A DNA stretch of 64,000 nucleotides from Escherichia coli (GTDB lineage Bacteria; Pseudomonadota; Gammaproteobacteria; Enterobacterales; Enterobacteriaceae), in the NCBI RefSeq assembly GCF_046105845.1, contig NZ_CP151004.1; one strand, given 5' to 3'. Under the pieces are notes generated by a model that did no database searches, was not told the origin of the DNA, and saw only the letters and a program-made list of their open reading frames with translations. The position numbers were made by a program, and so were the translations under genes. Positions 25,578 to 26,004 of this stretch are shown piece by piece; position 1 is the stretch's first letter, and the number at the start of each line of letters is the position of its first letter.

Positions 25578-25670
25578 AAAAAAAACCGGATGCGAGGCAT
25601 CCGGTTGAAATAGGGGTAAACAGACATTCAGAAATGAATGACGGTAATAAATAAAGTTAATGATGATAGC
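25578..25670 (-). ncRNA. micF: MicF antisense sRNA (93 nt), divergent from ompC
   Basis: Minus strand reads GCTATCATCATTAACTTTATTTATTACCGTCATTCATTTCTGAATGTCTGTTTACCCCTATTTCAACCGGATGCCTCGCATCCGGTTTTTTTT, matching remembered micF including its terminator hairpin and U-tail. Confidence 0.9.
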
Positions 25671-25825
25671 GGGAGTTATTCTAGTTGCGAGTGAAGGTTT
25701 TGTTTTGACATTCAGTGCTGTCAAATACTTAAGAATAAGTTATTGATTTTAACCTTGAATTATTATTGCTTGATGTTAGGTGCTTATTTCGCCATTCCGC
25801 AATAATCTTAAAAAGTTCCCTTAAA

Positions 25826-25920
25826 TTTACATTTTGAAACATCTATAACGATAAATGAAACATCTTAAAAGTTTTAGTATCATATTCGTGTTGGATTATT
25901 CTGCATTTTTGGGGAGAATG
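25826..25920 (+). promoter_or_regulatory. ompC promoter with tandem OmpR boxes
   Basis: Three tandem ~20-bp boxes (tttacattttgaaacatcta, acgataaatgaaacatctta, aagttttagtatcatattcg), then -35 TTGGAT (25891-25896) and -10 GAGAAT (25915-25920). Confidence 0.8.
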
Positions 25921-26004
25921 GACTTGCCGACTGATTAATGAGGGTTAATCAGTATGCAGTGGCATAAAAAAGCAAATAAAGGCATATAACAGAGGGTTAA
26001 TAAC

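Follow-up and report, generated by a model that had tools for sequence, protein, structure and literature searches.

A sequence-intact micF-ompC control region of K-12 type, with a rare base in OmpR box C2, in an Escherichia coli chromosome

The control region shared by micF, the gene of the small RNA MicF, and the porin gene ompC is among the best-studied regulatory regions of bacteria, and an intact copy is the default in E. coli, such that finding one matters very little in itself. The question raised by the copy studied here, at positions 25578-26004 of a 64,000-nucleotide stretch of E. coli DNA analysed as a whole (hereafter the window; contig NZ_CP151004.1), is whether it is the ordinary region in complete form, and whether the few bases at which it departs from K-12 could change how it works. 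A first-pass annotation had described a complete divergent module, made of a 93-nt micF and an ompC promoter with three tandem OmpR boxes, as evidence that the osmoregulated porin switch of this strain is intact beside a variant OmpC allele. The reading that we favor, with a probability of roughly 0.9, is that the locus is the orthologue of the K-12 micF-ompC control region, intact in sequence and expected to work as in K-12, with differences that are most likely without effect. We computed identity, completeness, spacing and conservation, and we infer binding, activation and pairing in this strain from the K-12 literature.

The interval runs from the final base of the micF terminator tail (25578) to the base preceding the ompC ATG (26004), and its pairwise alignment with K-12 shows 423 identical bases out of 427 (99.06%), four substitutions and no indels; everything from 25590 to 25822, including the micF promoter and its mar/sox/rob box, is unchanged. 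The region was found by genome search in 5,376 of 5,426 complete E. coli genomes. On its micF side it is flanked by rcsD (22594-25266, minus strand), and ftp/apbE, ada and alkB lie downstream of ompC. The whole window is colinear, at about 98% identity and in reverse orientation, with K-12 2,338,867-2,272,838, and no insertion sequence (IS) element was found in the alignment of the two. The match reflects orthology, not chance. As the first-pass annotation had it, the two genes face apart, with micF on the minus strand and ompC on the plus strand, an arrangement found in K-12 and also recovered in 112 Enterobacteriaceae species. The distance of about 335 bp that it gave is right when measured from the 5′ end of micF to the start codon of ompC (334 bp, 25671-26004) and wrong for the spacing of the transcription starts. 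In E. coli, micF and ompC are joined by a 253-bp regulatory region in which the OmpR sites serve both genes (PMC1489923); since the alignment contains no indels, the spacing between the two start sites is the same in the window as in K-12, which places the ompC start at about 25924.

Several other features were recorded along the window. The gene yfaS (alpha-2-macroglobulin-like; 4451-9070, plus strand), annotated as a pseudogene in K-12, forms one intact open reading frame (ORF) of 1,539 aa. The autotransporter adhesin gene yejO (47857-50448, plus strand) is an uninterrupted ORF of 863 aa, whereas in K-12 IS5K splits the gene and leaves a pseudogene; the window lacks this IS5, the corresponding junction lying at about 47920-47923. 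Between mqo and eco (33715-33823), a 109-bp intergenic repeat occurs once in the window and three times in tandem in K-12 (2304498-2304950). At 46862-46886, about 150 bp of the K-12 narP-ccmH sequence (2291175-2291327) has no counterpart, probably because a REP-type element is present in K-12 only. Rfam matches were obtained for the REP/BIME-derived nucleoid-associated RNA naRNA4 in the rcsB-rcsC intergenic region (21841-21917, plus strand, 73.8 bits) and, at their expected syntenic positions, for a tRNA-Pro at the proL position (50553-50626, minus strand) and the L25 ribosomal-protein leader upstream of rplY (54342-54367, minus strand).

The micF half of the locus comprises the following features.

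25578-25670, minus strand: micF, encoding the 93-nt MicF RNA, located by Rfam family RF00033 and by K-12 b4439 mapped through the alignment.
25637-25670, minus strand: 5′ antisense segment of MicF (nt 1-34), which pairs with the ompF translation-initiation region; identical to K-12.
25578-25606, minus strand: intrinsic terminator of micF, with a 10-bp stem, a 3-nt loop and a U8 tail, from a terminator scan and RNA folding.
25678-25683, minus strand: putative micF -10 hexamer TAGAAT, read from the sequence, identical to K-12 and placed by its distance to the annotated 5′ end.
25702-25721, minus strand: mar/sox/rob box ACAGCACTGAATGTCAAAAC, a MarA/SoxS/Rob site overlapping the micF -35 region; consensus match, identical to K-12.

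The RF00033 match (25578-25671, minus strand) spans model positions 1-94 of 94 at 116.8 bits, against a gathering score of 79 (E = 9.5e-18), and is thus not truncated. K-12 b4439, 93 nt long at 2313084-2313176, maps to 25578-25670 with a single substitution, so that the 93-nt gene previously placed at 25578 is exact; the best matches listed for micF in the complete E. coli genomes show 100% identity. The length of 93 nt and the divergent orientation are also those described for MicF, together with its regulators, in the literature (PMC5745476). Nucleotide 1 of MicF is 25670, and nucleotides 1-72 are the same as in K-12. The invariant 13-nt 5′ end reported for MicF, GCUAUCAUCAUUA (PMC1489923), is present at 25658-25670 on the minus strand. 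The duplex predicted between MicF nt 1-34 and the K-12 ompF start region, computed on the restricted seed and translation-initiation region with K-12 ompF as target, has an energy of -27.4 kcal/mol, beyond that of every one of 500 shuffles (-11.7 +/- 2.9); folding full-length MicF against a long ompF segment gave an extended structure and was uninformative. The one substitution, at 25589 (G in the window, A in K-12), turns a G-U pair of the terminator stem into G-C, takes the minimum free energy of the whole RNA from -18.5 kcal/mol in K-12 to -21.4 kcal/mol and leaves the shape of the fold unchanged; the window base agrees with the Rfam consensus and is common to every other E. coli locus aligned.

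Upstream of micF, the sequence at 25702-25721 matches the consensus of the mar/sox/rob box reported by Martin et al. (1999), AYnGCACnnWnnRYYAAAYn. MarA, SoxS and Rob are known to control micF (PMC5745476, PMC3617542). Two small ORFs over micF (25476-25613, plus strand; 25497-25724, minus strand), for which K-12 has no annotated counterpart, were treated as spurious.

The ompC half holds the OmpR sites, the core promoter and the leader.

25811-25819, plus strand: conserved block AAAAGTTCC, directly upstream of C1; at least 95% conserved.
25826-25845, plus strand: OmpR box C1, TTTACATTTTGAAACATCTA; identical to K-12 and lying within the published C1 oligonucleotide (PMC2586830).
25846-25865, plus strand: OmpR box C2, TAACGATAAATGAAACATCT, beginning TAGCG in K-12; 19 of 20 bases identical.
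25866-25885, plus strand: OmpR box C3, TAAAAGTTTTAGTATCATAT; identical to K-12.
25891-25919, plus strand: ompC core promoter, with -35 TTGGAT at 25891-25896, a 17-bp spacer and -10 GAGAAT at 25914-25919; identical to K-12.
25924-26004, plus strand: ompC 5′ leader of about 81 nt; identical to K-12, its probable start set by the 253-bp distance and the position of the -10 element.

The three OmpR boxes reported earlier are thus confirmed as three contiguous 20-bp sites in the same register as in K-12, the last of them stopping about 5 bp short of the -35 element. The 60-bp block that they form (25826-25885) agrees with K-12 at all positions but one (59 of 60) and is unique in the window; 100 shuffles never produced it. 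The boundaries of C1-C3 follow those reported by Harlocker 1995 and Head 1998. They are supported by the agreement of four lines of evidence, namely the published C1 oligonucleotide TCCCTTGCATTTACATTTTGAAACATCTATAGCGAT (PMC2586830), the OmpR motif GTTACATTTTGTTACAT obtained by ChIP-exo (PMC5438342), which the conserved halves of the boxes match, the positions described as crucial for OmpR binding, A4C5, A14C15 and GNNNC (PMC1489923), all of which are unaltered in the window, and the phylogenetic footprint described below. A generic sigma-70 scan flagged neither the micF nor the ompC promoter and returned two matches, no more than shuffles give; missing the ompC promoter is expected, as it depends on an activator. 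The module reported by the first-pass annotation is indeed complete, with full-length micF, both promoters, the mar/sox/rob box, the OmpR boxes and the leader all present at K-12 spacing, and alignment with K-12, the check that it had proposed, revealed neither disrupted OmpR boxes nor a truncated micF.

A broader comparison was made with micF-ompC regions collected from GTDB species representatives with the conserved micF 5′ end as probe, giving an alignment of 112 other Enterobacteriaceae species and the window (113 in total). Conservation reaches 90-100% at TTTACA and GAAACA of C1, TGAAACA of C2, GTTTT and GTATCAT of C3 (at least 93%) and the -35 element TTGGAT (at least 97%), and likewise at the conserved bases of the -10 element and at the core of the mar/sox/rob box, where GCAC and its flanks are conserved to at least 95%. 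In C1, A4C5 and G11AAAC15 are kept in at least 102 of the 113 species. The half-site cores TTTACA, GAAACA, GAAACA and GTATCA, each conserved to at least 90%, are all unaltered in the window, as is the conserved half of C2 (TGAAACA, 25856-25862), the 5′ half of that box (25845-25855) being the least conserved stretch of the whole block. Conservation of at least 90% among the other 112 species is reached at 142 intergenic positions, and the window stands apart at just one of them, 25799, where K-12 has the same base. Judged from their sequence, the OmpR boxes are intact at every position marked as important by evolution or by experiment. The block AAAAGTTCC is conserved more strongly than parts of the OmpR boxes, and within it G25815-C25818 (GTTC) is invariant in 113 of 113 Enterobacteriaceae species; AAAGTTCC also precedes box F1 of K-12 ompF.

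Downstream of this promoter lies the variant porin allele.

26005-27132, plus strand: ompC coding sequence, an ORF encoding a 375-aa allele, 92% identical to K-12 OmpC over its full length.

The variant allele noted earlier is real, at 375 aa against 367 aa in K-12, and appears to sit behind a normal promoter. It encodes a full-length 16-strand porin with a signal peptide, an orthologue of K-12 OmpC, from which it differs by four clusters of indels and substitutions at precursor residues 47-49, 176-190, 215-239 and 311-318, which we believe to correspond to surface loops L1, L4, L5 and L7. Its best matches among solved structures are all OmpC chains (E = 1e-221), and the identical protein of other genomes has a Pfam Porin_1 annotation. 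It is recorded without change in 362 collection blocks, and the window thus carries a known OmpC allele. Elsewhere the same porin sequence occurs behind other promoter haplotypes; the promoter variants are therefore not linked to the porin allele.

Two differences from K-12 close to the OmpR sites had escaped the first-pass annotation.

25823-25824, plus strand: GC>AA dinucleotide, 2-3 bp upstream of C1, from the alignment to K-12.
25848, plus strand: G>A at position 3 of box C2 (G in K-12, A in the window).

The first of these falls on a polymorphic hot spot of E. coli, at which GC (K-12), GA, CT and AA are all seen, AA being found in one of 5,147 matching complete genomes. The second is rarer still. 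Neither the 5,426 complete E. coli genomes nor JGI metagenome contigs yielded a match to a 37-mer centered on 25848, CATTTTGAAACATCTATAACGATAAATGAAACATCTT, which cannot seed a megablast match without the variant base, and none of 5,371 genomes matched a 75-mer exactly over its full length. E. coli keeps G at this position almost without exception, which may be due to weak constraint or just to shared ancestry. A base with no match in either collection might be taken for a sequencing or assembly error in an otherwise standard region, as might the unusual dinucleotide near C1. Against such an origin, the independent draft assembly GCA_026687785.1, located via the exact RcsD protein, is identical to window positions 20094-27766 at 7,672 of 7,673 bases over 7.7 kb, variant bases included, and two more similar contigs were reported. 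This second assembly establishes the A at 25848 as real and rules out sequencing error as its source, and any error behind the unusual bases as a group is exceedingly improbable. The same draft assembly shares with the window a T at 25358, between micF and rcsD, where C is the base of K-12 and of each of the ten further E. coli loci in the comparison.

In the segments compared, the closest complete genome reaches 98.6% identity across 24 kb, 99.1% across 14 kb and 99.5% across 3.4 kb. The lack of a better match had suggested a Shigella origin, against which speak the full colinearity of the window with K-12 and the failure to find any IS element in their alignment. The E. coli lineage of the window is not represented among the 5,426 complete genomes searched, and the draft GCA_026687785.1 is essentially identical to it. 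Because this lineage lies about 0.5-1% from its nearest complete genome, a few private intergenic substitutions are roughly what background divergence would bring.

Could these changes nevertheless retune the module? The C2 substitution and the dinucleotide might alter the affinity of phosphorylated OmpR (OmpR~P) for its sites, or the C1>C2>C3 hierarchy of occupancy, and so shift the osmolarity threshold or ceiling of ompC and micF, possibly in a way matched to the variant OmpC. The three changed bases do lie together in a 26-bp stretch of the OmpR sites, the other ~230 bp from micF to the boxes being as in K-12; the A at 25848 occurs in no complete E. coli genome and AA at 25823-25824 in one; the substitution raises the A/T content of the half-site, and OmpR makes contacts in the minor groove (PMC3945435); and AA creates the flank CTTAAATTT beside C1, the same as that upstream of box F1 of K-12 ompF. 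However, no columns of the box region vary more across the 113 species than those affected. Counting the window, column 25848 holds T in 49, G in 34, A in 20 and C in 10 of them, the A being shared with 19 other species, among them Enterobacter cloacae, Cedecea neteri, Atlantibacter hermannii, Phytobacter and Kosakonia; the corresponding counts are A66/T25/G20/C2 at 25823 and T62/A38/C11/G2 at 25824. Moreover, no crucial A-C or GNNNC position is hit, two or three private changes roughly equal the background divergence of about 0.5-1% of sites, and the occurrence of the identical OmpC protein with other promoter haplotypes speaks against any matching to the porin allele. Retuning of the module is thus unlikely. 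Its more specific form concerns the haplotype AA (25823-25824) plus A (25848), encountered in this lineage alone, which as a naturally occurring cis-regulatory variant would alter how OmpR~P occupies C1 and C2 and reset an osmolarity or acid threshold for ompC and micF; this form is a little more doubtful again.

We return to the reading of an ordinary, intact control region. Of the four differences from K-12 in the interval, one gives the micF terminator a stabilizing G-C pair, two form a hot-spot dinucleotide outside C1 and one is a private base in the degenerate half of C2. The changes at 25848 and 25823-25824 are most likely neutral and without effect, the case for neutrality at 25848 resting on the variability of that column across species; the sequence specificity of OmpR is, besides, known to be modest (PMC3945435). 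The sole non-trivial detail of the locus is the rare, probably neutral, base of this lineage in the degenerate C2 half, a minor natural variant that could serve as a lineage marker.

If the locus works as in K-12, EnvZ would phosphorylate OmpR at high osmolarity, and OmpR~P would fill C1-C3 and activate the weak ompC promoter. The same OmpR sites would activate the divergent micF promoter, 253 bp off (PMC1489923), which MarA, SoxS or Rob could also switch on through the mar/sox/rob box overlapping its -35 region (PMC5745476, PMC3617542); H-NS, too, is known to bind the micF-ompC intergenic region (PMC5745476). Pairing of MicF with ompF would then give reciprocal control of OmpC and OmpF.

The earlier statement that the porin switch is intact in this strain holds for the cis module at ompC and micF. 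That the whole switch is intact does not follow from the locus, as an intact sequence is not in itself a sign of expression and ompF, ompR, envZ and hfq lie outside the window; from the K-12 map, we take ompF, the MicF target, and ompR-envZ to be elsewhere on the chromosome than K-12 2,272,838-2,338,867. An intact cis module could in principle accompany a switch broken by a trans defect in one of these genes, and the window covers only the equivalent of K-12 2.27-2.34 Mb. Nothing within it favors such a defect, and yfaS and yejO, both broken in K-12, are intact here, with none of the pseudogene decay typical of reduced lineages. Furthermore, nearly all E. coli have ompF, ompR, envZ and hfq, as a rule in intact form, and a broken switch is accordingly very unlikely. 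For practical purposes, the locus can serve to anchor annotation, with micF, the OmpR boxes and the ompC promoter all placed to the base.

Among known systems, micC-ompN offers the same general plan, with a small RNA gene divergent from a porin gene and an RNA that represses another porin (PMC5745476, PMC3617542). It differs in that its sequence is unrelated, and MicC, whose gene is absent from the window, is 109 nt long and targets ompC. Closer in its OmpR sites is K-12 ompF, in which F1-F3 are likewise tandem 20-bp sites, each made of two 10-bp halves with A-C and GNNNC cores, preceded by AAAGTTCC; the AA variant of the window brings the C1 flank to the CTTAAATTT found there. Unlike ompC, ompF is another gene at another locus, has a distal repressing site, F4, and lacks a divergent small RNA gene. 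The closest system is the K-12 micF-ompC region itself (micF b4439; ompC b2215; boxes C1-C3). The window departs from it by substitutions at 25589 in the terminator stem, at 25823-25824 on the 5′ side of C1 and at 25848 in C2, and by a 375-aa OmpC allele that is 92% identical to the 367-aa K-12 protein. The genes, their neighbors (rcsD; ftp/apbE), their orientation and their spacing are all equal, and the promoters, the mar/sox/rob box, the leader and the MicF pairing segment are identical in the two: the micF-ompC module of the window is one that is already known and ordinary.
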